A program made the position numbers and the translations under genes. From NCBI RefSeq assembly GCF_988243305.1, contig NZ_OZ547136.1: a DNA stretch of 64,000 bases; one strand, written 5' to 3'. The notes under the pieces were generated by a model. It did not search any database, was not told the DNA's origin, and saw only the letters and a program-made list of their open reading frames with translations. This document shows, one piece after another, positions 1-39,930 of this stretch (its first letter is position 1; every line of letters begins with the position of its first letter).

Positions 1-109
1 CCTGAAGAAGAAAACCAACCCAGGTTACTCCGCAATTGGTCGTCTGAAAGGCCTGGCCGAAGTTCGCGGTGTCGAACTGGCGATCCAGCGCGCTTTCTTT
101 AGCCGTTAA
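1..109 (+). CDS. uxuA: Mannonate dehydratase UxuA, C-terminal fragment (gene starts upstream of window)
   Basis: Frame starting at nt 2 translates to ...[35 protein letters not shown], stop at 107-109; sits directly upstream of uxuB as in the uxuAB operon. Recognised from memory. Confidence 0.8.
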
Positions 110-189
110 TATCCACCGGCATGGCTGCGCGCCGTGCCGGTTCCTTCTTCCTTGCCGTCACTCTCTGAAGACGGATTCTGGAGTTTACG

Positions 190-1650
190 ATGACTACTAT
201 TGTTGACAGCAATCTGCCGGTTGCCCGCCCGTCATGGGATCATTCTCGTCTGGAATCACGCATTGTGCATCTCGGTTGCGGGGCGTTTCACCGCGCGCAC
301 CAGGCGCTGTATACCCATCATCTGCTGGAAAGCACCGACAGCGACTGGGGTATCTGCGAAGTTAACCTGATGCCAGGTAACGACCGCGTGCTGATCGAAA
401 ACCTGAAAAAACAGCAACTGCTGTACACCGTGGCGGAAAAAGGCGCAGAAAGCACCGAGCTGAAAATTATCGGTTCGATGAAAGAAGCGCTGCATCCGGA
501 AATCGACGGCTGCGAAGGTATTCTCAACGCGATGGCGCGTCCGCAGACGGCGATTGTCTCCCTGACGGTCACAGAGAAAGGTTATTGTGCCGATGCGGCA
601 AGCGGTCAGTTGGATCTCAATAACCCGCTGATCAAGCACGATCTGGAAAACCCGACTGCGCCGAAGTCCGCGATTGGTTACATCGTCGAAGCCTTGCGTC
701 TGCGTCGTGAAAAAGGGCTGAAAGCGTTTACGGTGATGTCCTGCGACAACGTGCGTGAAAACGGTCATGTGGCGAAGGTCGCGGTTCTGGGGCTGGCTCA
801 GGCGCGTGATCCACAGCTGGCGGCATGGATTGAAGAGAACGTCACCTTCCCGTGCACCATGGTTGACCGCATCGTTCCGGCGGCGACGGCAGAAACCTTA
901 CAGGAAATTGCTGACCAGCTGGGTGTTTACGACCCATGCGCCATTGCCTGCGAACCGTTCCGTCAGTGGGTGATTGAAGATAACTTCGTTAATGGTCGTC
1001 CGGACTGGGATAAAGTGGGCGCACAGTTCGTTGCAGACGTTGTGCCGTTCGAAATGATGAAACTGCGTATGCTGAACGGCAGCCACTCTTTCCTGGCGTA
1101 CCTCGGTTACCTCGGCGGCTATGAAACCATTGCCGACACCATGACTAACCCGGATTATCGCAAAGCGGCCTTCGCCCTGATGATGCAGGAACAAGCGCCA
1201 ACGCTGTCGATGCCGGAAGGTACAGACCTGAACGCCTATGCGACGCTGCTGATCGAGCGTTTCAGTAACCCGTCTCTGCGTCACCGTACCTGGCAGATTG
1301 CGATGGACGGCAGCCAGAAGTTACCGCAGCGTCTGCTGGATCCGGTGCGTCTGCACCTGCAAAACGGCGGTAGCTGGCGTCACCTGGCGCTGGGCGTGGC
1401 TGGCTGGATGCGTTACACCCAGGGCGTGGATGAGCAGGGTAAAGCTATTGACGTGGTCGACCCGATGCTGGCGGAGTTCCAGAAGATCAACGCGCAGTAT
1501 CAGGGCGCAGACCGCGTGAAAGCGCTGCTGGGCCTGAGCGGTATCTTTGCCGATGATCTGCCGCAGAATGCCGACTTTGTTGGCGCGGTGACGGCGGCAT
1601 ATCAGCAGCTGTGCGAACGCGGTGCGCGCGAGTGTGTGGCTGCGCTGTAA
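190..1650 (+). CDS. uxuB: D-mannonate oxidoreductase (fructuronate reductase)
   Basis: 486-aa ORF; GGAG Shine-Dalgarno upstream of ATG; mannitol dehydrogenase-family N-terminus (HLGCGAFHRAHQA); operon position after uxuA and before uxuR. Confidence 0.92.
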   Translation: MTTIVDSNLPVARPSWDHSRLESRIVHLGCGAFHRAHQALYTHHLLESTDSDWGICEVNLMPGNDRVLIENLKKQQLLYTVAEKGAESTELKIIGSMKEALHPEIDGCEGILNAMARPQTAIVSLTVTEKGYCADAASGQLDLNNPLIKHDLENPTAPKSAIGYIVEALRLRREKGLKAFTVMSCDNVRENGHVAKVAVLGLAQARDPQLAAWIEENVTFPCTMVDRIVPAATAETLQEIADQLGVYDPCAIACEPFRQWVIEDNFVNGRPDWDKVGAQFVADVVPFEMMKLRMLNGSHSFLAYLGYLGGYETIADTMTNPDYRKAAFALMMQEQAPTLSMPEGTDLNAYATLLIERFSNPSLRHRTWQIAMDGSQKLPQRLLDPVRLHLQNGGSWRHLALGVAGWMRYTQGVDEQGKAIDVVDPMLAEFQKINAQYQGADRVKALLGLSGIFADDLPQNADFVGAVTAAYQQLCERGARECVAAL

Positions 1651-1674
1651 CTAACTGATTACCCTACAGACTTA

Positions 1675-1719
1675 CTGGTCAATCAAACGCATATTTGGTT
1701 GACCAGTTTTCGTTTTTTT
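1675..1719 (+). terminator. Putative rho-independent terminator downstream of uxuB
   Basis: Inverted repeat ctggtcaa...ttgaccag followed by a T-run (ttttcgttttttt). Confidence 0.5.
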
Positions 1720-1787
1720 GCCCACCTGTACGTGCCAACTTCCAGTGCTAATGGTATAGTTTGAGATTAACGGGTGCCGTAAAATTG

Positions 1788-1830
1788 CCCGTTGTAGGCC
1801 GGATAAGGCATTCACGCCGCATCCGGCAAA
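1788..1830. repeat. REP-like extragenic palindromic element
   Basis: gtaggccggataaggc...cgccgcatccggca motif, typical of E. coli REP sequences, in the uxuB-uxuR intergenic region. Confidence 0.55.
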
Positions 1831-1863
1831 ATTTGATTAACCGCACCTAACGGACACAACACC

Positions 1864-2637
1864 ATGAAATCTGCCACCTCTGCGCAAAGACCTTACCAGG
1901 AAGTCGGGGCGATGATCCGCGATCTGATCATAAAGACGCCGTACAATCCTGGCGAACGGCTGCCGCCGGAGCGTGAAATTGCAGAAATGCTTGATGTCAC
2001 GCGGACGGTGGTACGTGAAGCGCTGATCATGCTGGAGATCAAAGGGCTGGTGGAAGTGCGCCGGGGTGCCGGTATTTATGTTCTTGATAGCTCAGACAGC
2101 CAGAACACAGACAGTCCGGATGCCAACGTCTGCAATGATGCCGGTCCTTTTGAGCTGTTACAGGCGCGTCAGTTACTGGAAAGTAACATCGCGGAATTTG
2201 CCGCCCTGCAGGCTACCCGCGAAGATATCGTCAAAATGCGTCAGGCATTGCAACTGGAAGAGCGTGAGCTTGCTTCCAGCGCGCCGGGCAGCAGCGAAAG
2301 TGGTGACATGCAGTTCCATCTCGCCATTGCCGAAGCGACGCATAACAGCATGCTGGTGGAGCTATTCCGTCAGTCCTGGCAGTGGCGGGAAAACAATCCG
2401 ATGTGGATCCAGTTGCACAGCCATCTGGATGACAGCCTGTATCGCAAAGAGTGGTTGGGCGATCACAAACAGATCCTCGCCGCGTTAATCAAAAAAGATG
2501 CCCGTGCGGCGAAGCTGGCAATGTGGCAGCATCTGGAAAACGTTAAGCAACGTCTGCTGGAATTCTCGAACGTTGACGATATTTATTTTGACGGCTATCT
2601 GTTTGATTCATGGCCGTTGGATAAAGTCGACGCCTGA
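1864..2637 (+). CDS. uxuR: GntR-family transcriptional repressor of hexuronate utilisation
   Basis: 257-aa ORF with N-terminal GntR-type winged HTH and FadR-like C-terminal domain; position after uxuB. Confidence 0.92.
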   Translation: MKSATSAQRPYQEVGAMIRDLIIKTPYNPGERLPPEREIAEMLDVTRTVVREALIMLEIKGLVEVRRGAGIYVLDSSDSQNTDSPDANVCNDAGPFELLQARQLLESNIAEFAALQATREDIVKMRQALQLEERELASSAPGSSESGDMQFHLAIAEATHNSMLVELFRQSWQWRENNPMWIQLHSHLDDSLYRKEWLGDHKQILAALIKKDARAAKLAMWQHLENVKQRLLEFSNVDDIYFDGYLFDSWPLDKVDA

Positions 2638-2648
2638 CTGATTATGAT

Positions 2649-2680
2649 AAGCGCAAGGGTAAACGTTCCTTGCGCTTTCT
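2649..2680. terminator. Putative hairpin terminator between convergent uxuR and yjiC
   Basis: Inverted repeat aagcgcaagg...ccttgcgctt followed by tctt; lies between the stops of two convergent genes. Confidence 0.45.
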
Positions 2681-2777
2681 TAAATTAAGAAGTCGCAATG
2701 AGTATTACTTTGTAAATTGCAGGGTATTGTTTAAATATCTGTATAACCTGAATGTTAGTACTCATTCTTCTCAGTAG

Positions 2778-3608
2778 TCATTTACCAATATAATTCCATT
2801 CACCATTTTTTAATTCAAACAGTTCTGGAAGAGATGACGGTTGCAGAGTCATGCGTTTGAGTGGCGCATCTTCATCACCGGGGATAACTTTATATCCCAT
2901 TTTTGCATGGATCTCCGCGGTACCTGGATAGGCTTCTATACCAATTATTGGGTCATTTCCCATTCCAATATTAGCATTAAGTAATGCGGCAAGGGCGAAT
3001 CCGGAAGAATTTGCTACCCCGGTTACCGTCATTATCTGATCAATATAGATATCAATTCTTGGCTGCTCATTGGTCCATCTTTTTGCCTGAGAAGCTGGAA
3101 GGGTTGAAATATATCCTATCGTGGTTCCGGCATAACCAGGAACATTGCAACCAGGGCCTAATGTTATTTCATGAACTGTATAGTCCTCAACAGGATCGAA
3201 AGGGCTCTTCATAAATAAATTTAGCCGTAAACCTTCTGCTAACTCTGTGGCAGCATGCGCCTTTTTACATATACCACCATATATTTCGTCTAAAGCTGAG
3301 GTGATTTTCAAGTTTCGATAGAGCATACGCCCTGTTGTTGTAATACCATTGAATTCGCTGCATGTTTCTGTTACATAATTAAATGGCCAGGACTGTTTGC
3401 CAATATTAAGTTTTCTAATTTCGACAACGCTTTTTCCATCGTAATTATGGTTATTGCCACGAGTAAGAGGCAGAAGATAGATATTTTCCGTATCCATGCG
3501 TGCATATTCATATCGACGTGTTAACTCATTGTCGACTTTTGGGTGATGAAGGAAGTGATTATTTGTATTGAATTGGTTATTAGCGGCATTGCTTAATGGC
3601 ATAGACAT
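2778..3608 (-). CDS. yjiC: Uncharacterised protein YjiC
   Basis: 276-aa ORF in the conserved position between uxuR and iraD; AT-rich codon usage. Function unknown. Confidence 0.8.
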   Translation of the reverse strand: MSMPLSNAANNQFNTNNHFLHHPKVDNELTRRYEYARMDTENIYLLPLTRGNNHNYDGKSVVEIRKLNIGKQSWPFNYVTETCSEFNGITTTGRMLYRNLKITSALDEIYGGICKKAHAATELAEGLRLNLFMKSPFDPVEDYTVHEITLGPGCNVPGYAGTTIGYISTLPASQAKRWTNEQPRIDIYIDQIMTVTGVANSSGFALAALLNANIGMGNDPIIGIEAYPGTAEIHAKMGYKVIPGDEDAPLKRMTLQPSSLPELFELKNGEWNYIGK

Positions 3609-27550: not shown

Positions 27551-28264
27551 TTAGTTGAATTTAATATCAGCAATCAATTTTTTGATATAATCTTCTGGTT
27601 TCATCTTTGTTTTTTCTTTTATTTGCTGATAAGTTTCTTTCTTAATGTTGATTTCAATTGTTTTATTTTTATTGATAATGCACGCAATTGGTAATAGTAG
27701 CAATAATGTAATAATTATAATTATAAGAATTATTTTTGAATTTCCATGTGAGTCCGATTCCTTCATTTTTTGGAATATTCTTCTCATGACTGGATTAACT
27801 GCTGAAGAAAACATAATCATAATGATAAAAACAGCCAAAAAATCTAATGTATATTTTGCGTAGTAACTTTCAGTATTCATCTCAAAAAACAGCAACCACG
27901 CCAGAGCACAAAACAATGTCATGCCAAAACATATAAATGAAATAATAAAGCCAATTTGTTGCGTTCTTTTATCTAGTTCAGAGAGAAATTTCTCACCAAC
28001 TCTTTGACCTTTATAAGGTGAAATAAGTGTGTGGGCGGCATTGAAAAATACATTTGTGCAAATCAAAACAAAGAATATATTGATTGGCATAAATCCTATA
28101 AGTGTATAAAAGAAGAAGTCTTGTTGAAGATAGTACGGTAATTGATTATCAACTTCCATTAACAATGTAAATATAAAACCGAAAGAAACATAAAAAAACA
28201 AACCTTCTTCACGTAATTTTTTAATGTATTTTTTGAATTTAAAATCTTTAATCATCTTCAGCAT
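27551..28264 (-). CDS. Uncharacterised AT-rich multi-pass membrane protein immediately downstream of hsdR
   Basis: 237-aa ORF with four to five hydrophobic segments; very AT-rich codon usage unlike the core genes; same strand as the hsdMSR operon, 64 nt after the hsdR stop. Confidence 0.6.
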   Translation of the reverse strand: MLKMIKDFKFKKYIKKLREEGLFFYVSFGFIFTLLMEVDNQLPYYLQQDFFFYTLIGFMPINIFFVLICTNVFFNAAHTLISPYKGQRVGEKFLSELDKRTQQIGFIISFICFGMTLFCALAWLLFFEMNTESYYAKYTLDFLAVFIIMIMFSSAVNPVMRRIFQKMKESDSHGNSKIILIIIIITLLLLLPIACIINKNKTIEINIKKETYQQIKEKTKMKPEDYIKKLIADIKFN

Positions 28265-28328: not shown

Positions 28329-31300
28329 TTATGTTGGCAAAGCAATTTTCCCCGTGAGCATATCAAACATCAGATAAGCAAAGCCCTTTGCCCGAACTGG
28401 ATCGGATAAATATTGCAACATAAATTCTTGCCGAGCGTCATTACTGTCCATTACAGCATTATCAACTGCCTGGAGGAAATCACCAAGAATCGCTTGTTCT
28501 GGCGGATTGTTTTTAATTTGTGTCATAACATTTTCATTTTCAGTTATTTTGTTATACACCGAAAAAGCATTGCTGATCATATCTTTCTCGGTCAAATGGT
28601 CGCTAATGAATAATTCATTCATCCGAGAAAGCACCTGCGATAAAAATTCCTCTTTTTTATCTTTCGCTTTTGCCGTACCAATATCATTACTTGCATCCAG
28701 CGTATAGTCAGGCGTTTCTTCCTGTAAACGTAAATCTTGCTCATGGATTTTCGATAAACGATAGTGACTCATCTCTACATTACTGAGATCAATTTCATCC
28801 TCTTCCAGACGTTGCTCATGCAGCAGCGGACGCAGATGACGGGCAAACAGGCTTAGCTTTTCCAGATCTTTGTCATCGTATTCGACGATCTGCGACATAA
28901 ATTCGTAAAAGCGAACAAAGCTGCCGAGATCTTTTTTGAATATTTCCAGACGATCTTTTTCCTGCTTACAGGCTTTAAAACTGTTTTCCGCATTAGTGAT
29001 TAACACCGTATCGCCCGTTTTTTTGGTGCGCTCGAACATCTCTTTGGCGGTCAGATAAGCGTCTATCGCCATCAGATAACGCTTTTTCCAGCGTTCTACC
29101 GCCGGTTTGCATATATTACTGATCGCTGCATTCGATTTATTTTTGATGAAGAATGCCTCGCAGAACTGCTCGACTTCATGCCACTGAAAGATCTGCGTGG
29201 CGCGCAGTTTTTCAAACAGATCGAAAACCTGCTGCGGATCGCTGACATCGGTCAGTTCCGCCGTCTGGAAATAGGGCTGGAACGCGCCGAGGATCTCGTC
29301 CGGATCGTTATAAAAATCGAGAACAAAAGTGCCTGATTCCGCTTTGCCCGGATAGGTGCGATTCAGGCGGGAGAGCGTCTGCACGCACTCGACGCCGCCG
29401 AGGGCTTTATCCACGTACATCGCGCACAGTTTCGGCTGGTCAAAACCGGTCTGGAATTTATTGGCGACCAACATGACCTGATAATCATCGCTGTCGAAGG
29501 CTTTGCGCATATCCCGCCCTTTCAGGCCGGGGTTCATGTTTATTTCAGTAAATTTCTGGTTTAACAATGCCAGGCTGTTATGGTCGCCTTCCTGGAATTC
29601 AACTTCCCCGGAAAACGCCACCATCGCGCTGATTTTCTGGTAATTGTTCTCGCTAATGTATTTATCAAACGCCAGCTTGTAGCGTACAGCGGCTTTGCGT
29701 GAACTGGTGACCACCATCGCTTTAGCCTGGCCGCCAAGCAGGTGCATCACATGTTTGCGGAAGTGCTCCACAATCACCTTCACCTTCTGCGAGATATTGT
29801 GGTCGTGCAGTGTCACCCACTGGTTGAGCTTAATCTTCGCCCGTTTGCTATCGACTTCGCGGTCTTTGTCTTCCAGCTTTTGCAGCAACTGATACGCCAC
29901 TTTGTAGTTGGTGTAGTTTTTCAGCACGTCGAGGATAAAGCCTTCTTCGATTGCCTGGCGCATGGAGTAGACGTGGAAGGCCTCAGGTTTATTGGTTTTT
30001 GACGCCGGTTCATCGGGACGTGGACGGCGACCAAAAAGTTCGAGGGTTTTGGATTTTGGCGTGGCGGTAAAGGCGTAGTAGTTCAGGTTACTGCTGCCTT
30101 TCCGGGCGGCAATGGTCGCATCCAGAATATCTTCTGACGACAGCACCACGTCATTATCCATTTCTTCGCTCATCAGCACTTCTTTAAGCTGACGGGCGGT
30201 GGAACCGCTCTGCGAGGAGTGCGCTTCGTCGGCAATCACCGCATATTTACGCTGCTTCAGGCTGACGCTGTTTTCGATTGCTTTCAGTACGAATGGGAAC
30301 GTCTGGATGGTGACAATAATGATCGGCTGCGAGTTTTCCAGCGCGCTGGCCAGCTTTTCCGATTTGGAGCCGTCGCCCTCTTTGTTATTGATGCGCCCGA
30401 CCACGCCGTCGGCGTGTTCGAACTGCCAGATGGTGTCCTGAAGCTGGTCGTCCAGCACCGTGCGGTCCGTCACCACGATAATGGAGTGGAACTGTTTTTC
30501 CCCGTTCACGTCGTACAGACGAGAAAGCTGGTGGGCGGTCCAGGCAATGGAGTTCGATTTACCGGAACCGGCGCTGTGCTGGATCAGGTATTTATGGCCG
30601 GTTCCTTCAATCGTCGCGGCCTCCAGCAGTTTGTTGACCACATCCCACTGATGATAACGCGGGAAAATCAGGCTCTCTTTCTTCGCTTTCAGCCCGTTCC
30701 ACTCCTCTTTTTCTTCAATATGCAAATGGACAAAACTGGCGAGGATTTTTAATAAGTTGTCCGGCAGCAGCACTTCATTCCACAGATAATCTGTGGCGTA
30801 GCGGTGGGTATCTTCGGGGATCTCGTTGCCTGCGCCGCCGTCTTTGGTGCCTTTGTTAAACGGCAGGAAGAAGGTGCTGTCACCCGCGAGTTTGGTGGTC
30901 ATAAAGACGTCATACTGGCTGACGGCAAAATGCACCAGCGCGCCGCGCTTAAAGGTCAGCAGCGGTTCCGGTTTATTGGTGGCGGGATCTTTCGGCAGGC
31001 GGGTCTTTTTGTACTGCGCAATGGCGTTCTGCACCGCCTGTTTGAATTCGGATTTCAGCTCCAGCGTGGCAATTGGCAGGCCGTTGATAAACAGCACCAG
31101 GTCGATGCGCCATTTTTTGGCTTTCACGCCCGTTTCTGCAAAGACGCTATTTGAGGCATACGGGCTGTAGACCAGTTCCGGCACGATACGGCAGATATTC
31201 TGCTGATAGCGCGCCAGCGTTTCCGGGTTGAGATTATGTTCCGGTTTAAACTGACACAGCGAAAAACGGGCATTGCGGATTTTCAGTCCGTGGCGAAGTA

Positions 31301-31592
31301 CGCCGAGCGTACCCCAGGTGCGCGACTGGATGTCGGTGGCGTTGCTGTCGGCTTTTTTTAACTGCGCAACCAGCGCGTCGAGGAAATGGCGCTCGGTGTC
31401 GTTGGGGTAAACGCGGGCGAATTTCTCCCACTCCTGTGGTTGGGTGATTTGTACAAAGAGCAGGGCGTCTTGTGCGTATAGCGCACGTTCACGATCGTAG
31501 CCGTCGCCTTTGCCGACAATCCAGCCTTTTGCTGCCATCTGCGCGATGATGTCGTTTTGTAGGTTGACCTCTTTTGCAATGTCGTTGCTCAT
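28329..31592 (-). CDS. hsdR: Type I restriction enzyme R subunit
   Basis: 1087-aa ORF; N-terminal PD-(D/E)xK-type nuclease region (IDLVLFINGLPIATLELK), SF2 helicase Walker A (HSAGSGKSNS) and DEAH box (IADEAHSS); start overlaps hsdS stop (ATGA). Confidence 0.88.
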   Translation of the reverse strand: MSNDIAKEVNLQNDIIAQMAAKGWIVGKGDGYDRERALYAQDALLFVQITQPQEWEKFARVYPNDTERHFLDALVAQLKKADSNATDIQSRTWGTLGVLRHGLKIRNARFSLCQFKPEHNLNPETLARYQQNICRIVPELVYSPYASNSVFAETGVKAKKWRIDLVLFINGLPIATLELKSEFKQAVQNAIAQYKKTRLPKDPATNKPEPLLTFKRGALVHFAVSQYDVFMTTKLAGDSTFFLPFNKGTKDGGAGNEIPEDTHRYATDYLWNEVLLPDNLLKILASFVHLHIEEKEEWNGLKAKKESLIFPRYHQWDVVNKLLEAATIEGTGHKYLIQHSAGSGKSNSIAWTAHQLSRLYDVNGEKQFHSIIVVTDRTVLDDQLQDTIWQFEHADGVVGRINNKEGDGSKSEKLASALENSQPIIIVTIQTFPFVLKAIENSVSLKQRKYAVIADEAHSSQSGSTARQLKEVLMSEEMDNDVVLSSEDILDATIAARKGSSNLNYYAFTATPKSKTLELFGRRPRPDEPASKTNKPEAFHVYSMRQAIEEGFILDVLKNYTNYKVAYQLLQKLEDKDREVDSKRAKIKLNQWVTLHDHNISQKVKVIVEHFRKHVMHLLGGQAKAMVVTSSRKAAVRYKLAFDKYISENNYQKISAMVAFSGEVEFQEGDHNSLALLNQKFTEINMNPGLKGRDMRKAFDSDDYQVMLVANKFQTGFDQPKLCAMYVDKALGGVECVQTLSRLNRTYPGKAESGTFVLDFYNDPDEILGAFQPYFQTAELTDVSDPQQVFDLFEKLRATQIFQWHEVEQFCEAFFIKNKSNAAISNICKPAVERWKKRYLMAIDAYLTAKEMFERTKKTGDTVLITNAENSFKACKQEKDRLEIFKKDLGSFVRFYEFMSQIVEYDDKDLEKLSLFARHLRPLLHEQRLEEDEIDLSNVEMSHYRLSKIHEQDLRLQEETPDYTLDASNDIGTAKAKDKKEEFLSQVLSRMNELFISDHLTEKDMISNAFSVYNKITENENVMTQIKNNPPEQAILGDFLQAVDNAVMDSNDARQEFMLQYLSDPVRAKGFAYLMFDMLTGKIALPT

Positions 31593-32992
31593 GCGCTGGC
31601 CTCCGTGGGTGTTTCTGCTTTGGGGATGGGGGCGGTCCAGTTGCGTAGGTCGATTTTTCCGGTGACGGCAGCGGAGATAAGGGCGGTGCGGCGTTCCTGG
31701 ATTAGCATTATTGCTTGATTGGTTTTAAATATTATGAGATCAATTTGTGCGCATTTTTCATTCAAGGCGTTGACGATTGATTGTGCTTCACCCAATGGGG
31801 GAAATATAAACTTGGTTGTTTTAAAGTCACCTAATGAAACTCTTTTTCTTGTTCCCTCAATACTAATGTTATTAATGGTTTGTCGCCCAAAATTTGAGTT
31901 CAATAGATATGCTATGAAATGTGCATTGAAGGTTTTTTTATTAACTCTTACTCTCATAACATCTTGCGTTATGACAGCATCTGGTTCATTTTTAGGATAA
32001 ACGCACGCTTCTCCTGGGGGATCTCCGACTTTTGAAAAAATCACATCATTTGAGGATAATTTACATATTTCAAGCTGTTGGGCTTTTTGATGAGTAACAT
32101 ATACAGTACTTTTTCTGTTATAACCTGTCGCTTTTATATCTCGAATGTATACGACAGGTACCCCTTCTTCTTTCAATTCACTTGCTAGTAAATCACTTCC
32201 AAATGGCCCATTTACGAAGCATCCTTTAGTTTCATCACCAGTATTGGCTAATTTACTCTTAAACCAGTGGGAGGGTGCTTCGCCTAATCCTGTTAAACCA
32301 GAATCTTTCATCGGCACATCAGGATTTAGCCCTTTGGTCACCGCATGGCTAATCACTGCCTGACGTTTTTCTTTAAGTAGTTCAATGAGTTGTTGTTGTT
32401 TCTCGATCAGGTCATCGATTTTTGCTGTTTCATGATCAAGGAAAAGTGCAATCTTAGAAGATTCATCATTACGAGGTTTTGGGCATTGTATATCGCCTAA
32501 AAGTTCAAGGTTTAAACCGTCTCGTAAATCACCGCCAGCCATGTTACGTATATTCTGATAATTAGAAATGAGCCACCAAAATATATAGCGAGATTGATTC
32601 TTTTTATACAATACAATGGCCGCCATGGATTGGTTACAAGTGGTATTAATACCAAGTTGTGCAACCATACCTTTGGTTTTTCCCTGCCCAGCTAAAGCGA
32701 CAACAAGTGCCCCTTTTGGTATCCACTTGGCACTACTATTTTCAAGTGCAGCGTTAGATATATATGTGGATGGCTCGACTATATAACCTTGATTTACTGC
32801 TCCAGAACTAATCCAGGGAACTGTACCATTCTCCCAATAATCAATAACATTTTTGGAGGGAGTTCCTCCTGCAAAAATATTGGATAGCCACCTCAGCTTA
32901 GTTTTTTTCCAGTTTAGTGGTAATTCATTACACCACTCCATCCCAGAATCCCTATACTCCGGATACGCCTGATATTTATTTAACCCCGCCAT
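31589..32992 (-). CDS. hsdS: Type I restriction-modification specificity subunit (two target-recognition domains)
   Basis: 467-aa ORF between hsdM and hsdR with overlapping stop/start codons on both sides; two-TRD architecture with central and C-terminal conserved helices, as expected for HsdS. Confidence 0.8.
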   Translation of the reverse strand: MAGLNKYQAYPEYRDSGMEWCNELPLNWKKTKLRWLSNIFAGGTPSKNVIDYWENGTVPWISSGAVNQGYIVEPSTYISNAALENSSAKWIPKGALVVALAGQGKTKGMVAQLGINTTCNQSMAAIVLYKKNQSRYIFWWLISNYQNIRNMAGGDLRDGLNLELLGDIQCPKPRNDESSKIALFLDHETAKIDDLIEKQQQLIELLKEKRQAVISHAVTKGLNPDVPMKDSGLTGLGEAPSHWFKSKLANTGDETKGCFVNGPFGSDLLASELKEEGVPVVYIRDIKATGYNRKSTVYVTHQKAQQLEICKLSSNDVIFSKVGDPPGEACVYPKNEPDAVITQDVMRVRVNKKTFNAHFIAYLLNSNFGRQTINNISIEGTRKRVSLGDFKTTKFIFPPLGEAQSIVNALNEKCAQIDLIIFKTNQAIMLIQERRTALISAAVTGKIDLRNWTAPIPKAETPTEASA

Positions 32993-35337
32993 CAGGAATG
33001 TACCTCCTGCAACAGTTTCATAATCTCAGCGCTTACCGCATCCAAATCAGCATCAATCTCCTCCAACGGTCGCGGCGGTGTATAAACATAAAAATGACGA
33101 TTAAACGGAATTTCATACCCCACAATCCCGATATCCCCATCTTTCGCATCGCGTTTATCGGCATTGATCCACGCATCCGCAACATGCGGCAATACTTCCG
33201 CTTTGAAGTAATCCTCGATCAACTCGTTGGTAGATACCGCCGGATTTAACGGCACATTCTCGTTATCACGCAGGTCGCCATCCGATTCAAACTCCACAAC
33301 CTTTCCGTGGTACTCAAACGCGCCGTACAGCGGTTGGGGCGCTTCTTTCAGAACCTTGCTGATTACCGGCTCGGCGTCCGGGTTTTTGCGGGTGATAGCA
33401 TCGATAAACTGCTTGTTCTCTTTCGCATCCAGCTTCACGCCTGCGGTTCTGAGCGCCTCTTTCAGCGTCAACTGGAACTGATTAAAGTCATTGCTAACAG
33501 TCTCTTTGCCACCCGCCAGCATCCTCATCGCTGCCTGAATACGCCGCGCTTTTTCCATTAACCCGCGCTGGGCCAGCCATAATTTGCTGTCGAGCAGATC
33601 TTTAATTTGCTTCTCTTTCAGCTCGCTAAAATCGGCTTTAAGAATGGCGCGGGCTTCACTTTCTACCGCTGTTAAGTCGCCGTAATTACCGTCCTGCCAC
33701 TGGAAAGCAAAGGCGTCATACAGTTGCGCCATCGGCGCGTTAAACGGCTTCGGCGCAAAGCGCAATGTGGCAATGGCGTCATCACTTATCTGAGCCGACA
33801 GGCGTAACGGGCGCTCAACGGTGATGCGACGATAGCCAAACTCGGTGCTGTGAAAGACTTTGCTGGCAAAGGTTTTTGCCGCCTCGGTTTTGGTTGTTGC
33901 GGGCTGGCGTCCCCGGCTGGATTTTTGTTCGGGTGCTTTCTCCAGGCCTAACGCCGCAAGCGTAGTGGTGGCAACGGGTTCGAAATCGCCAAACGTGCGG
34001 GTGATTAAACCAATATCCTCCTCCCCGAGAATATTACGTTTTGATCCCAGCGATTTACGCATCTTTCCGCACAGGTTGCTGCCGTCGATTAGCTGGACTT
34101 TACCTTTGCGTTCTGGCGCTTTTTTGTTAGACAGCACCCAAACATAGGTAGCGATACCGGTGTTGTAAAACATATCGGTGGGCAGGGCGATAATGCCTTC
34201 CAGCAAATCCGCTTCCAGAATGTAGCGGCGGATCTCGCTTTCACCGCTGCCTGCGCCGCCGGTGAATAACGGCGAACCATTAAGAATGATGCCGATCCGT
34301 CCGCCACCGCTTTTGGCATCGCGCATTTTGCTGATCAGATGCAGCAGAAACAGCAACGAACCGTCGGAGACTCGGGGCAGGCCGGGGCCAAAGCGACCAT
34401 CAGCACCTTTGAGTTTGTGCTCGTTGTTGATGTCGGTTTCTATCTTTTTCCAGTCCACGCCGAAAGGTGGATTAGAGAGCATGTAATCGAATTTTTCTGC
34501 GGGGAGCTGATCGTTGGAAAGGGTGTTGCCGAGTTTGATAAGGCTGACATCCTGGCCCTTAATCAGCATGTCGGCTTTGCAGATGGCGTAGGATTCCGGG
34601 TTTAACTCCTGACCAAACGCGCGCATCACGGCATTGGGGTTTTGTTTGTGGACGTACTCCATGCCGGAGGAGAGAAAGCCGCCGGTTCCCGCCGTTGGGT
34701 CGTAAATGGTGCGAATGATACCGTCTTTATTGAGTGCATCATCATCATCGAAAAACACCAGCGAGGTGGTCAGATTGACGATATCACGCGGGGTAAAGTG
34801 CTCCCCGGCGGTTTCGTTAGAACTCTCGGCAAAACGTCGGATCAGCTCCTCAAATACCAGCCCCATATCGTGGTTGGTGACGTGCTCCGGGTATAAATCT
34901 GCTTTAGCGAATATTTGCACCACTTTGAACAGTAAGTTTGCATCCGCCAGCTGTCCGACAAACTCGCTGAACTTGAAGTGTTCGAAAATTTCGCGGGCAT
35001 CCGAAGAGAACGACTGGATGTAGTTTTCCAGGTTGTCCTGTATGCCATTTTGCCCCATTTTGCTGAGATCCATCGCTGAGGCATTGAAGAACGTGAGGCC
35101 ATTAGTCGCCCGCAGGATCATTTTCTCCTGGGCTTCCTCCGGCAGTTTCATGGCTTTTACTTTTTGCGCCTCGGTAATGACCGCGTCTTTCGTTGTTTCG
35201 AGTACGCATTCCAGACGACGCAAAAGGGTAAAAGGAAGAATAATTCGTCCATATTGTGATTGTTTAAAATCGCCGCGTAACAGGTCGGCGACAGACCACA
35301 GGAAGGCTGCAATCTGGCTGAAATTAGTTGATGACAT
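32992..35337 (-). CDS. hsdM: Type I restriction-modification N6-adenine DNA methyltransferase subunit (long form)
   Basis: About 781 aa from the ATG at 35337 (AGGA 9-12 nt upstream; an in-frame ATG also exists at 35346); SAM-binding ([10 protein letters not shown]) and catalytic NPPF motifs; long C-terminal extension. Confidence 0.88.
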
Positions 35338-35621
35338 AAAAAGCATTCCTTGCCCTGAAAAAGAGGGGGATATTCAATGTGAAGTGAATGCTTTGTTATA
35401 TCAAACTATTGCTGTGATGATCAAAAACACGATCATTTTCAATACGTTATAAATATGAATTGGAAATATTAATTGTTCTAATGAATGCGTGTTGAGGTGT
35501 TTCTTAATATATTTTGATTTATCCTGGAATGGTATTTTTGCAGAAACAAAGACGCTAACTTTTATTTTTTATTCGCAGCATAATGACGCCGTTTGCCAGT
35601 GCAATTTGACAGGAGTCATTC

Positions 35622-37721
35622 ATGAAAGCCACCGAAGCCCGATTACTCGATTTTCTAAAACGCTCTCAGCAATTCGTTATTCCCATTTATCAGCGTACTT
35701 ATTCATGGTCAGAGGAACAGTGCCGCCAGCTCTGGGACGATGTAATACGTGCCGGGCAGCGTGATGATATCCCGGCGCATTTTATCGGCTCGGTGGTGTA
35801 TATCGAACAGGGCCTATATCAGGTTTCGGGGATCTCTCCCTTACTGGTGATTGACGGTCAGCAACGCCTGACAACGGCGATGTTATTGCTGGAAGCGTTG
35901 TCCAGACACCTTGGCGATGACGAGGTGATGGATGGTTTCTCCGCCATGAAATTACGAAACTATTATCTGCTCAATCCGTATGAATCGGGCGAGCGTGGAT
36001 TTAAGTTACTGCTTACGCAAACGGACAGAGAGAGCCTGCTGGCATTGATTAGACAAAAACCGCTGGCAGAAAATTGCTCTCTACGCGTGAAAGAGAATTT
36101 TGAGTTTTTCCATGAGCAAATAGGCAAACTCCACGGCAATTTCACCGCGTTATGTCAGGGCCTTTCCAAACTGCTGATTGTGGATGTCGCCTTGAATCGC
36201 GGTCAGGATAATCCGCAACTAATCTTTGAAAGCATGAACTCAACAGGAAAAGCGCTGAGTCAGGCGGATCTAGTACGCAACTATGTTCTGATGGGGCTGG
36301 AGCCAGAACATCAAAGCCAACTGTACGACGATTACTGGCGGCCCATGGAGCTGGCGTTTGGTCAGAAGGGATACACTGACTATTTCGACAGTTTTATGCG
36401 TAATTACCTGACGGTAAAAACAGGTGAGATTCCGCGAATTGGTGATGTCTATGAAGCCTTTAAACGCTATGCGCGAAAACCTGGCGTAATAGATAGCGGG
36501 ATGGAGGCGCTGGTTGCGGATATTCGTACCTATGCGGATTATTTTTGTGCGATGGCGCTGGATAGCGAAAAAGACAAAATATTAAAGATGGCGTTTCAGG
36601 ATCTACGTGAGCTGAAAGTCGATGCCGCCTGGCCGTTCCTGTTGGTGCTTTATCACGACTATAAACAGGGAATTCTTTCTGCCGCGGATTTTTTAAGTGC
36701 CACGCGTTTAATTGAGTCGTATATCTTCCGGCGCGCAGTCTGTGCCATTCCCACTAACTCATTTACTAAAACCTTCGCCACGTTTTACAAAGTGCTGGAT
36801 AAAGAGCGTTATCTGGAGAGCATTGCGGCACATTTGCTGGAACTGCCTTCCTACCGTCGTTTCCCGGATGATGATGAATTTCAACGTGAACTGAAAACTC
36901 GCGACCTCTACAACTTCCGTAATCGCAGCTATTGGCTACGTAGATTTGAAAACCACGATCGTAAAGAACGGGCCTATGTTGACACTTATACGATTGAACA
37001 TATCATGCCGCAGAACCCTAATTTATCGGCGAAGTGGCGCGATGACCTTGGTCCGGAATGGAAGCGAATCCATAAAAAGTGGCTCCATACGTTGGGTAAT
37101 TTAACGTTAACTGGCTATAACTCAAGCTACAGCGACCGTCCATTTGCGAAGAAGCGAGATATAAAAGGTGGCTTTAAGGAAAGTCCATTACGCCTGAACA
37201 CGGGGTTAGGGCAATGTGAAATATGGGATCGTGCAGCGATACAAAAGAGAGCGGAACGTCTGTCCGAGCTGGCAATAGACGTCTGGGCGATCCCCAAACT
37301 TTCGGAAGACGTGTTGGCTCGTTATCGCACCGTCGTTGAACGAGGAACGGGATATGTCCTTGCTGATTTCCCGCAACTTGAAGAAGGTACGCACATCCGC
37401 GTACTTTTTGACAGCCTTTCTGATGCCGTTATGACGCTGGACGCTGGGGTTACGCGAGAAATATTGAAGCTCTATGTTGCCTTCAAAGCGGAGACGAATT
37501 TTGTTGATGTGGTGCCGCAAAAAAGTCGCTTACGTTTATCACTAAATATGCCATTCCATGAACTGGTTGACCCAAAATGTATGGCTAAAGATGTCACAGA
37601 TATAGGCCGTTGGGGCAATGGCGATGTTGAAATAGGTTTCAGCGATCTTTCTGAGCTTCCTTATGTGATGGGATTAATTCGTCAGGCATTTGAAAAGCAG
37701 ATGGATAACGCGATGGTTTAA
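35622..37721 (+). CDS. GmrSD-like DUF262/DUF1524 protein (putative modification-dependent Type IV restriction endonuclease, BrxU/SspE-like)
   Basis: 699-aa ORF; N-terminal DUF262/ParB-like NTPase motifs (IPIYQRTYSW...VIDGQQRLTT); central His-Me/HNH-like DUF1524 region (YTIEHIMPQNPN...W...HTLGNLTL); AGGAG Shine-Dalgarno; divergent from hsdM. Confidence 0.8.
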   Translation: MKATEARLLDFLKRSQQFVIPIYQRTYSWSEEQCRQLWDDVIRAGQRDDIPAHFIGSVVYIEQGLYQVSGISPLLVIDGQQRLTTAMLLLEALSRHLGDDEVMDGFSAMKLRNYYLLNPYESGERGFKLLLTQTDRESLLALIRQKPLAENCSLRVKENFEFFHEQIGKLHGNFTALCQGLSKLLIVDVALNRGQDNPQLIFESMNSTGKALSQADLVRNYVLMGLEPEHQSQLYDDYWRPMELAFGQKGYTDYFDSFMRNYLTVKTGEIPRIGDVYEAFKRYARKPGVIDSGMEALVADIRTYADYFCAMALDSEKDKILKMAFQDLRELKVDAAWPFLLVLYHDYKQGILSAADFLSATRLIESYIFRRAVCAIPTNSFTKTFATFYKVLDKERYLESIAAHLLELPSYRRFPDDDEFQRELKTRDLYNFRNRSYWLRRFENHDRKERAYVDTYTIEHIMPQNPNLSAKWRDDLGPEWKRIHKKWLHTLGNLTLTGYNSSYSDRPFAKKRDIKGGFKESPLRLNTGLGQCEIWDRAAIQKRAERLSELAIDVWAIPKLSEDVLARYRTVVERGTGYVLADFPQLEEGTHIRVLFDSLSDAVMTLDAGVTREILKLYVAFKAETNFVDVVPQKSRLRLSLNMPFHELVDPKCMAKDVTDIGRWGNGDVEIGFSDLSELPYVMGLIRQAFEKQMDNAMV

Positions 37722-37764
37722 TATGGAATAATATCCTCTTTACCATGCAATCAAGGATCCTCTA

Positions 37765-38499
37765 ATGACAACCAAACTACTGGACCTGAGCTGGAATGCA
37801 AATGCCATCCCGGCGATGCAAATTGTCGGTACGCGCGCGGCCTTGTTTACCTTCAAAACGCATATGGCAGGGTTTGTCTGGGATGCCGCGCAACTGGAAA
37901 ATAACCCCTATACCTTTGTTGAAGTTAAAACGCTGCTCGATGGCGTCACCGTTGGCGGGCATAAGGTCAGTGATACTGAGCAGGTGTTGAACCTGGCAGA
38001 TAGCGCAAAAAAACTGATTGAACTTGTGCAATCCGGGCGTTTCGATCTTGATAAGAAAACGTTCACGTTGCTTAACGGCATTATTGCGCGTAATGAGGCG
38101 CTGGAGTGGGGCGTTTTTCGCGGCGAAGGTGATGAGTTACATTACAATGCGCGCGTTCACCTCGGCGAGTTGGGCACCCATTTCCCACCAGCCACAGAAG
38201 CAGGTGCACCTGAACTGAATCGAATATTCGCCGCAGGTGTGGCACAAATAAAAGAGATGCCACCGTTCGAAGGGGCGCTGGCAATGTTTTTATTTGGTGC
38301 TTATTTTCAGTTTTTCTTTGATGGCAACAAGCGTACCAGTCGCCATATGATGAACGGCTGGTTAATGCGCCACGGTTACAATCCCATTAGTGTACCCGCA
38401 GCTCGTGCGCTGGAGTTCAACAGCAAAATGGTGCGCTTTTATCACAGCAAAGATGCCAGTGAAATGATGGCATTTTTGGTGGATTGCTATCAGGTTTGA
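37765..38499 (+). CDS. Fic/Doc-like protein with non-canonical active-site motif (Q-x-F-x-DGNKR)
   Basis: 244-aa ORF; segment AMFLFGAYFQFFFDGNKRTSRHMMNGWLMRHGYNPISV matches the Fic/Doc core (HxFx(D/E)GN(G/K)RxxR ... LL.RHGY.P) except that His is replaced (Gln/Phe); starts 44 nt after the GmrSD-like gene with AAGGA Shine-Dalgarno. Confidence 0.6.
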   Translation: MTTKLLDLSWNANAIPAMQIVGTRAALFTFKTHMAGFVWDAAQLENNPYTFVEVKTLLDGVTVGGHKVSDTEQVLNLADSAKKLIELVQSGRFDLDKKTFTLLNGIIARNEALEWGVFRGEGDELHYNARVHLGELGTHFPPATEAGAPELNRIFAAGVAQIKEMPPFEGALAMFLFGAYFQFFFDGNKRTSRHMMNGWLMRHGYNPISVPAARALEFNSKMVRFYHSKDASEMMAFLVDCYQV

Positions 38500-38637
38500 A
38501 TAAGTGCTGGATGGTGTCCCAATGCTGCCATCCAGCCCCTTCATATCAACTTCCCTATCTTTTCCTAAAACGTGATGCTATTTCCAACATTCGAATCATC
38601 AGTGCACGAAAAGCAGATCGTAAAGAGAGGAATCGCT

Positions 38638-38940
38638 ATGAGCATGGTTAAACATAAACGAGGGACCTCCTCTACACTCGATGTGCAGCATGAGGCCGAA
38701 TTGAAGGCGCTGGCGAATAAATTCGACGAAGAGATTGATTACAGCGATATCCCACCTTCCAGCGATGAGCAATGGTCTAACGCAGAACGCGGTAAGTTTT
38801 ATCGGCCATTGAAAACCCAGGCTTCGGTGCGTATTGATGCTGATGTGATGGAATGGCTGAAGCGACCTGGTAAAGGCTATCAAACTCGCCTGAACGCAAT
38901 TTTACGTGAAGCGATGCTGCGCGATCAGAACAAAAAATAA
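38638..38940 (+). CDS. BrnA-like (COG3514) ribbon-helix-helix antitoxin-family protein
   Basis: 100-aa product from the ATG at 38638 (AGAGAGG Shine-Dalgarno); C-terminal RIDADVMEWLKRPGKGYQTRLNAILREAM resembles the BrnA antitoxin signature; no BrnT-like (DUF497) partner ORF adjacent. Confidence 0.65.
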   Translation: MSMVKHKRGTSSTLDVQHEAELKALANKFDEEIDYSDIPPSSDEQWSNAERGKFYRPLKTQASVRIDADVMEWLKRPGKGYQTRLNAILREAMLRDQNKK

Positions 38941-38973
38941 TTCAGGCCGCCACATGGCGGCCATCATCCAAAA

Positions 38974-39930
38974 TTACTTCCTCAACCCCGCAAACGCCGC
39001 CCGAATCTCATCCTCCGGCAGCTGAATCCCGATAAACACCATCGTGCTATGCGGTTTTTCATCGCCCCACGGCCTGTCCCAGTCGGCGCTGTAGAGGCGC
39101 TGGACGCCCTGGAACAGCAGGCGGTTAGGTTCGCCGTCAATCCACAGCATCCCTTTGTAACGCAGCAGTTTATCTGCCGATTCCAGCAGCAGGTTTTCCA
39201 TCACGCGGGAAACTTCGCTGATATCTACCGGGTAATCCAGTTCCACCACAATCGACGAAATATCGTTTTGTTTATCCGCGATAAAGTGGAAACGCGGTTT
39301 GGTGCTGACGACGTTTTCTTCCAGCATAAAACCGTTGGTGTTGAACAACAGGCCCAGGTCGATGTCGCCGTGGGTGACGGTGTAGACCGGCGCGCGGGCG
39401 TTGATGCGTGCCAGACGTTCACGCAGTTTCTCTGCTTCGCCTGCGACGTCGGTTTTAGTCAGCAGAATACGGTCGGCGTAGCCAACCTGGGACTGGGCGA
39501 TGGTGAACTGGTTCATCTGCTCATCGGCATGTACCGCATCCACCAGCGCAATCACGCCGTCCAGCAGGTAGCGCTGGCATAAAATCTCATGGGAGAAAAA
39601 GGTCTGAATAATCGGGCCAGGATCGGCCATGCCGGTGCATTCAATGACCAGACGGTCGAACTGAATATTGCCCTTGTCGAGATTGTCCAGCAGGTCGAGT
39701 AGCGCGTCCTCCAGCTCGTTGGAGCGCGAACAGCAGATGCAGCCGTTGGTCAGCGTTTTGATCTGCGTGGCGCGGTCGCCAATCAGTTGATCATCAACGG
39801 AGACTTCGCCGAATTCGTTTTCAATCACGGCAATCTTGTAGCCGTGTTGTTCGTTAAGAATATGGCGCAGCAGGGTAGTTTTGCCCGCGCCTAAAAAACC
39901 GGTGAGTAGGGTCACTGCAATCGGGTTCAT
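38974..39930 (-). CDS. yjiA: CobW/P47K-family GTPase YjiA
   Basis: 318-aa product from MNPIAVTLLTGFLGAGKTTLL (P-loop); GGAGAG Shine-Dalgarno; the track ORF start is an upstream in-frame extension. Confidence 0.88.
   Translation of the reverse strand: MNPIAVTLLTGFLGAGKTTLLRHILNEQHGYKIAVIENEFGEVSVDDQLIGDRATQIKTLTNGCICCSRSNELEDALLDLLDNLDKGNIQFDRLVIECTGMADPGPIIQTFFSHEILCQRYLLDGVIALVDAVHADEQMNQFTIAQSQVGYADRILLTKTDVAGEAEKLRERLARINARAPVYTVTHGDIDLGLLFNTNGFMLEENVVSTKPRFHFIADKQNDISSIVVELDYPVDISEVSRVMENLLLESADKLLRYKGMLWIDGEPNRLLFQGVQRLYSADWDRPWGDEKPHSTMVFIGIQLPEDEIRAAFAGLRK

Follow-up and report, generated by a model that had tools for sequence, protein, structure and literature searches.

The DNA analyzed here, a window of 64,000 nucleotides, is E. 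coli chromosome, and the region of interest is the immigration control region, with yjiR/yjiS on one side and yjiA/yjiX/btsT on the other. Within it, an hsd operon and a gmrSD-like gene stand back to back around an AT-rich spacer:

28329-31592, minus strand: hsdR, with the expected Pfam domains
31589-32992, minus strand: hsdS, with the expected Pfam domains
32992-35337, minus strand: hsdM, with Pfam HsdM_N and N6_Mtase
35335-35337, minus strand: ATG start codon of hsdM
35338-35621: AT-rich spacer between the divergent hsdM and gmrSD-like genes, 284 bp, 32.7% G+C
35622-37721, plus strand: gmrSD-like gene, 699 aa, with Pfam GmrSD_N, GmrSD_C and DUF5655

The hsd genes follow the order hsdM-hsdS-hsdR, and because the stop and start codons of neighbors overlap, they presumably form one operon driven from the spacer. 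In the other direction, a weak-Fic gene of 244 aa lies 43 nt past gmrSD and is followed by a brnT remnant, brnA, and yjiA. Both hsdM and gmrSD are the first genes of their divergent units, and no other upstream source of transcription is present in the ORF map or the RefSeq annotation.

A preliminary description of this DNA had reported an AT-rich spacer between divergent hsdM and GmrSD-like genes, and the Pfam matches, the ORF map, the RefSeq annotation and the G+C content (32.7% at positions 35338-35621 versus 49.7% window-wide) bear this out. Of the extent given there (35347-35621, 275 bp), the right end stands, but the left end shifts by 9 nt, giving the 284 bp from 35338 to 35621. Position 35347 is set by the longest ORF and is not the start of hsdM: RefSeq annotation of identical or near-identical loci places the start at the ATG at 35337, the N-termini of the HsdM homologues align there, all beginning at this codon (MSSTNF/MTSGNF), and the in-frame ATG upstream of it (35344-35346) is unused. 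An AT-rich intergenic spacer within a horizontally variable locus is expected and unremarkable in itself.

Several properties of the genes themselves deserve mention. HsdM has 781 aa, and its Pfam domains span only residues ~12 to 458, leaving a C-terminal region of ~320 aa without a Pfam match; against the TIGR00497 hsdM model, it scores 90.6 bits, far below the cut-off of 242.75. The protein is 81 to 85% identical in many Enterobacterales genera, a degree of conservation that is unusual among type I methyltransferases. The hsdS gene is markedly AT-rich (31-41% G+C), and its product varies in length (467, 427, and 429 aa) in strains with the same or nearly the same spacer (window 31589-32992, minus strand; L001 11463-12746; L003 8455-9744). 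Just downstream of hsdR lies a gene for a 237-aa hypothetical protein (27551-28264, minus strand) that has only sub-threshold matches to membrane-protein Pfam families; each of the three fully examined E. coli loci (L001, L002, and L003) has this gene annotated at the same position. Beginning 7 nt past the fic stop codon is a 9-bp G+C-rich hairpin (38506-38536; GCTGGATGG ... CCATCCAGC, with a 13-nt loop and no T-run), which may be the 3' end of a gmrSD-fic transcript.

Within the species, the spacer and the two genes that it separates always travel together. The whole spacer is present in 114 of the 5426 complete E. coli genomes, with identities of 93.7 to 100%. The first kilobase of hsdM (114/5426) and the first kilobase of gmrSD (114/5426) are equally frequent, and each of the three occurs as one chromosomal copy at a query coverage of at least 80%; the plasmid collection searched contained no copy of the spacer. 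The within-species linkage is therefore absolute, and the hsdM/gmrSD locus is one uncommon haplotype of this region in E. coli. Carrier strains include SA186 and EcPF15, the latter with intact genes and the spacer at 497622-497905 of NZ_CP054227.1. Strain N3 matches the window at 100% over the spacer (35247-35721 compared), but for the neighboring kilobase of hsdM (34338-35337) no complete E. coli genome exceeds 98.5% identity, which points to a mosaic produced by recombination inside hsdM. Where hsdM stays intact, the gmrSD-like gene has often been disrupted: by an IS4 insertion in N3, by a split of the gene in GF60/GF43, and by truncation in Z142-6 and A37. The copies compared include those at window 35622-37721, L001 15376-18913, L003 12374-14473, L028, L032, and L034 2184-2717; in L034, a deletion corresponding to window positions 35962-38976 leaves a 177-aa N-terminal stub of GmrSD (L034 2184-2717), and this stub and the end of yjiA overlap.

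Outside E. coli, the two modules are found apart. A GmrSD protein search across genomes returned seven loci, among which only a Pseudocitrobacter MAG (L004) has the hsdM / gmrSD-fic-yjiA layout. The gmrSD homologue of C. amalonaticus (77% amino-acid identity) directly adjoins yjiR with no hsd genes, that of K. spallanzanii lies in an unrelated context, also lacking hsd, and in both species DNA similarity to the window stops at the gmrSD ribosome-binding site. Conversely, HsdM that is 84 to 85% identical is encoded in hsdMSR loci lacking gmrSD in Salmonella, Citrobacter, Serratia, and Klebsiella. There, hsdMSR directly adjoins yjiA (S. enterica subsp. salamae), brnT-brnA-yjiA (Citrobacter), a MotA/OmpA pair (Serratia) or IS elements (Klebsiella), and in other taxa other neighbor genes, in every case with no gmrSD.

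The Citrobacter arrangement also suggests how the E. coli haplotype arose. When the Citrobacter and Salmonella loci were compared with the window by BLAST, homology was lost at 35340-35356 and regained at 38588 in the brnT remnant; compared with the arrangement in Citrobacter, the E. coli haplotype thus has the present spacer and gmrSD-fic in place of a 353-bp spacer and the first 224 nt of brnT. A search for flanking repeats or a target-site duplication around the gmrSD-fic insertion gave only a 9-nt inverted match. Intact brnT-brnA stands beside hsdM in Citrobacter and in one metagenomic relative, and in the window the last ~64 nt of brnT survive (~38588-38650) with brnA downstream. Because only this 3' remnant is left, the gmrSD-fic cassette appears to have taken the place of the 5' part of brnT, and brnA appears to be an orphan antitoxin gene. 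In Serratia marcescens (L015-L017, positions 1-3048), the hsdMSR family is divergent from a MotA/ExbB-like gene of 550 aa and an OmpA-like gene, followed by DUF8245. This MotA/ExbB-like and OmpA-like pair resembles ZorA/ZorB of Zorya systems; judged by sequence, the Serratia locus is another apparent case of an hsdMSR operon back to back with an unrelated defense module.

We compared the spacer across 14 distinct Escherichia-lineage alleles, drawn from eight complete-genome alleles, a DNA-pattern scan of metagenomes and one more distant relative (L034), whose HsdM is 95% identical. The alignment divides into three segments:

35338-35405, minus strand: hsdM-proximal block, with a candidate -10 and a leader of ~50 nt; 5 of 68 columns variable (7.4%, n = 14 alleles)
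35406-35550: fast-evolving center; 55 of 145 columns variable (37.9%, n = 14 alleles)
35551-35621, plus strand: gmrSD-proximal block, with a candidate promoter and a leader of ~30 nt; 10 of 71 columns variable (14.1%, n = 14 alleles)

Identity to L034 follows the same division, at 92.6% in the hsdM-proximal block, 69% in the center, and 91.5% in the gmrSD-proximal block. Over the first 300 nt of each gene, third codon positions differ from L034 by 13% in hsdM and 25% in gmrSD; at 31% difference, the center thus diverges as fast as these positions or faster, and the gene-proximal blocks of ~70 bp appear from this comparison to be constrained, above the neutral background. Part of the block conservation could reflect recombination mosaicism rather than selection. 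The Pseudocitrobacter spacer cannot be aligned to that of the window by BLAST, although the DNA identity is 93% for hsdM and 79% for gmrSD-fic, and a global alignment is only marginally above shuffles (z = 2.4). Conserved proximal blocks with a free center are the pattern expected of two separate promoter/leader blocks and not of a shared central operator.

Within the center, a hypervariable 10-nt patch (35410-35419) has at least three very different haplotypes in otherwise close E. coli alleles (TTGCTGTGATG, TCGTTGTGATG, and TCGTCAACACA-like). The versions found in GF4-3 and L058 resemble L034, which suggests short-patch recombination.

The spacer had also been proposed to hold both promoters. 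By position, this is very likely, and the proximal ~70 bp on each side are conserved, but no site from a consensus scan beats chance. A simple sigma-70 scan found zero sites inside the spacer, and the best scores of a position weight matrix (PWM) scan were 10.1 on the plus strand and 8.7 on the minus strand, versus a mean best score of 11.5 for shuffled spacers. Since nothing rises above chance, the promoter candidates that follow are put forward on conservation and position. On the hsdM side, these and the associated leader elements are as follows, the Shine-Dalgarno sequence being read from the DNA:

35419-35424, minus strand: candidate -35, TTGATC, 18 nt from the -10, containing GATC no. 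1
35395-35403, minus strand: candidate extended -10, TGaTATAAC (hexamer TATAAC, 35400-35395), invariant in 14/14 alleles
35340-35394, minus strand: possible leader helix, AAAGCAUUC / GAAUGCUUU, which would mask the hsdM Shine-Dalgarno sequence, in the Escherichia lineage only
35347-35351, minus strand: Shine-Dalgarno sequence AAGGA, 9 nt before the ATG

The candidate hsdM promoter has a PWM score of 8.3, below chance level. Its TATAAC aligns with TAAAAA, TAAGAT or TAACAT in five lineages (Citrobacter, L021, S. salamae, Pseudocitrobacter, and Scandinavium). The -35 is weakly constrained, varying among alleles as TTGATT, TTGATA, TTTATC, and TTTATT, and this variation would be tolerable because the promoter candidate has an extended -10. 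The predicted transcription start site lies near 35388, giving a leader of ~50 nt in which AAGGAA is kept upstream of hsdM in Pseudocitrobacter, S. salamae, and L021. The 9-bp leader helix has arms that are invariant in 14/14 alleles and a folding energy of -14.4 kcal/mol (z = -2.4), which is mildly significant, as 3 of 200 shuffles fold as well. A leader hairpin common to several genera was considered and rejected: covariation was seen by eye only, RNAalifold gave no consensus structure, and single folds were non-significant outside E. coli.

On the gmrSD side, the corresponding elements, with the Shine-Dalgarno sequence again as read, are:

35555-35560, plus strand: candidate -35-like CTAACT, matching 3 of 6 consensus positions, with an 18-nt T-rich spacer to the -10
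35579-35584, plus strand: candidate -10, CATAAT, invariant in 14/14 alleles
35611-35615, plus strand: Shine-Dalgarno sequence AGGAG, 6 nt before the ATG at 35622

The T-rich tract before CATAAT is likewise invariant among the 14 alleles, and CTAACT has counterparts in L034 (CTGACT) and K. spallanzanii (TTAACT). A -10-like hexamer is positioned 42 to 46 nt before the gmrSD ATG in Pseudocitrobacter (AATAAT) and in C. amalonaticus and K. spallanzanii (both TATTAT), despite upstream DNA that is otherwise unalignable in all three; at the Shine-Dalgarno sequence, AGGAGTCAT is common to the window and Pseudocitrobacter. The predicted start site is near 35591, with a leader of ~30 nt. With ~200 bp between the two predicted start sites, ~35388 and ~35591, the promoters are not expected to compete directly for RNA polymerase.

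These results do not support the further suggestion of the preliminary description, that the spacer could carry shared regulation of the two modules. The modules are apart in Citrobacter, Salmonella, Klebsiella, and Serratia, the center of the spacer diverges fast, and the candidate core promoters lie ~200 bp from each other; in addition, there is neither a controller gene nor a conserved operator. Searches of the neighboring genes with Pfam, PADLOC, and NCBIfam returned no controller, helix-turn-helix or repressor gene and no methyltransferase-repressor fusion. The palindrome ATGATC-N8-GATCAT was rejected as an operator, one of its arms being lost in several alleles. An integration host factor (IHF) core, WATCAANNNNTTR at 35399-35411, was likewise rejected (five matches in the window versus 3.2 expected; broken in the common allele). 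As hsdS alleles differ where the spacer is the same or nearly so, the spacer cannot be adapted to the site that the enzyme itself recognizes.

A tighter geometry would couple the modules after all. Divergent promoters could overlap face to face within ~32 bp (35393-35424), the plus-strand one made up of TTGTTA (35393-35398), 17 nt, and GATGAT (35416-35421) and the minus-strand one of TTGATC (35424-35419), 18 nt, and TATAAC (35400-35395). RNA polymerase binding to the same ~32 bp would be mutually exclusive, the gmrSD leader would be ~190 nt, and the modules would be reciprocally coupled as in CfrBI and Ecl18kI; competing divergent promoters are a known device of restriction-modification control (PMC12707154). 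The plus-strand site is the top PWM match of the region, its -35 overlaps the invariant hsdM -10, and positions 35417, 35420, and 35421 (A-11, A, and T-7) stay fixed within a hypervariable patch, the hexamer reading GATGAT, CACAAT or CAATAT. However, the score of 10.1 is below the shuffled mean best, and the Pseudocitrobacter spacer has no equivalent. The gmrSD homologues with unrelated upstream DNA also keep a -10-like hexamer ~43 nt before the ATG, and the gmrSD-proximal block is conserved, which would not be required of a mere leader. We consider the face-to-face arrangement unlikely.

Both modules might instead be kept low by H-NS, through xenogeneic silencing of the spacer and the AT-rich hsdS. 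The composition suits this, with 32.7% G+C in the spacer and 31 to 41% in hsdS against 50% in the window, as do the horizontal variability of the locus and the absence of strong consensus promoters. But the tract is short, and the high-affinity 10-mer TCGATAAATT has no match with two or fewer mismatches inside 35338-35621. Judged on composition, generic binding of H-NS to the AT-rich spacer is possible. Silencing of both modules seems to us doubtful, if more plausible than the face-to-face promoters, and it would be compatible with two separate promoters; any co-regulation would then come from generic repression by a nucleoid protein and not from a dedicated operator.

As the K-12 immigration control region has symE/symR near hsdS, the spacer here could, by analogy, also hide a small gene or small RNA. 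Two short ORFs of 23 and 25 aa do exist on the minus strand; however, they start with TTG or GTG, the 23-aa ORF lies wholly within the fast-evolving center, and the 25-aa ORF crosses the gmrSD promoter block in antisense and continues into the start of gmrSD, so that we found no credible conserved small ORF in the spacer. A search of 34800-36200 against Rfam 15 at a permissive threshold gave a best score of 21.9 bits versus a cut-off of 44.3 bits (E = 0.29), and a simple scan of the spacer found no terminator-like site. A hidden gene of this kind is extremely improbable.

One conserved element fits neither of the two proposed core promoters, as it lies outside both:

35431-35434: GATC no. 2, a Dam-type site in the block TTGAAAATGATC (minus strand), invariant in 14/14 alleles

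The flanking positions 35430 and 35435 vary among the 14 alleles. On the hsdM strand, the block reads ATAAAATGATC and is conserved across genera; the longest word common to the spacer and its Pseudocitrobacter counterpart, CGATCATTTT, includes this GATC. Measured from the hsdM ATG, TGATC lies 83 to 88 nt upstream in Pseudocitrobacter, S. salamae, Citrobacter, and L021, and at 86 and 98 in E. coli; in Scandinavium it is displaced to 71. The spacer thus holds one invariant GATC and a second that is variable in position or absent. Readings of the block as a CRP, FNR or Fur site, compared by eye only, gave no fit.

Control of hsdM by Dam or by a regulator could explain such a pattern, with ATAAAATGATC acting as an operator or methylation-sensitive promoter element that tunes hsdMSR transcription, for instance in response to the hemimethylation that follows replication or the entry of DNA. 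The invariant GATC between variable neighbors and the retention of the TGATC position in four other genus-level lineages point this way, as do a second GATC 32 to 35 bp further upstream in four lineages and an adjacent positioned 6-mer, ATAAAA, in 6 of 7 lineages versus a maximum of 4 in 500 shuffles; because the lineages are related, the shuffles overstate the significance of this sharing. The same block, however, can be read as a -35 that lies 17 nt from TAAAAA/TAACAT in Citrobacter, L021, and Scandinavium, or as the -10 (TAAAAT) of a second promoter. The block and TATAAC are held apart in E. coli by an insertion or duplication of 12 nt, so that there the block is not the -35 of the TATAAC promoter. 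Moreover, the GATC is lost in L036, the second GATC does not keep its position in E. coli or L034, and a site of the Lrp or OxyR type was not identified. We regard control of this kind as a long shot, less probable than face-to-face promoters. The specific version, in which GATC 35431-35434 within ATAAAATGATC is a methylation-sensitive or regulator-bound element coupling type I restriction-modification transcription to the Dam methylation state, such as that of hemimethylated DNA after replication or on entry into a new host, is slightly less probable again; if true, Dam-coupled hsdM would add to type I control a transcriptional layer that has not been described for EcoKI-type systems. The Dam switches of pap and agn43 likewise have GATC in an AT-rich regulatory spacer. 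Here too, GATC sites lie in such a spacer, and one of them is strictly conserved, in a GATCATTT/GATCTTTT context. Unlike those switches, the spacer lacks a conserved pair of GATC clusters, and neither Lrp nor OxyR sites were identified in it.

On balance, we favor the explanation that the spacer is the junction of two independent modules, each with its own weak promoter and leader and not coupled by a common operator. The hsdM-hsdS-hsdR operon and the gmrSD-fic cassette would be independently mobile modules that came to lie back to back in one haplotype, each gene bringing its own control block of ~70 bp with a weak sigma-70-type promoter, a short leader, and a Shine-Dalgarno sequence, while the ~145 bp between the blocks would be filler. 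The hsdMSR core would be the extended -10 TGaTATAAC with a loosely kept TTGATN 18 nt upstream, and the gmrSD(-fic) core would be CATAAT with the poor -35 CTAACT and a T-rich spacer. The two promoters would fire outward from points ~200 bp apart.

This explanation can be set against known systems. EcoKI (type IA) of K-12 occupies the same chromosomal locus, between yjiS/yjiR and yjiA/yjiX/btsT, and its promoters are weak and unremarkable; control of type I systems is mainly post-translational, via ClpXP or assembly (review PMC12707154). The present system differs in that EcoKI has separate promoters for hsdR and hsdMS, whereas here hsdM-hsdS-hsdR is presumably one operon driven from the spacer, and in that HsdM (781 aa, below the TIGR00497 cut-off) is unlike that of EcoKI. 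He et al. 2015 (PMC4437046, Fig. 8) pointed to GmrSD homologues that adjoin type I and Mrr systems within the immigration control region in E. coli, and a 2025 review (PMC12707154) mentions them too. The arrangement is the same in these published neighbors, a DUF262+DUF1524 gene replacing McrBC next to a type I system (PMC4437046, PMC12707154), but the published examples are other proteins, such as APECO1_2080 of 733 aa, whereas the protein here has 699 aa, a C-terminal DUF5655, and a downstream Fic gene. The spacer of the present GmrSD-type gene has not been described.

CfrBI, Ecl18kI/SsoII, and C-protein type II systems likewise have divergent restriction-related genes around a short spacer that holds both promoters. 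In contrast to these type II systems, the present locus has no controller or helix-turn-helix gene and no conserved palindrome, its best-supported candidate core elements are ~200 bp apart, and the spacer stays the same where the S subunit, and with it the target of methylation, varies.

Taken together, these results describe a spacer that is real but ordinary and chimeric and that most likely holds two separate weak promoters, and the locus departs in nothing from the EcoKI picture of weak promoters and post-translational control. The adjacent defense genes here appear to be neighbors by insertion history and not a co-regulated unit, which cautions against assuming shared control in every divergent spacer, and the candidate promoter coordinates together with the conserved GATC are concrete targets for work on hsd and GmrSD expression.
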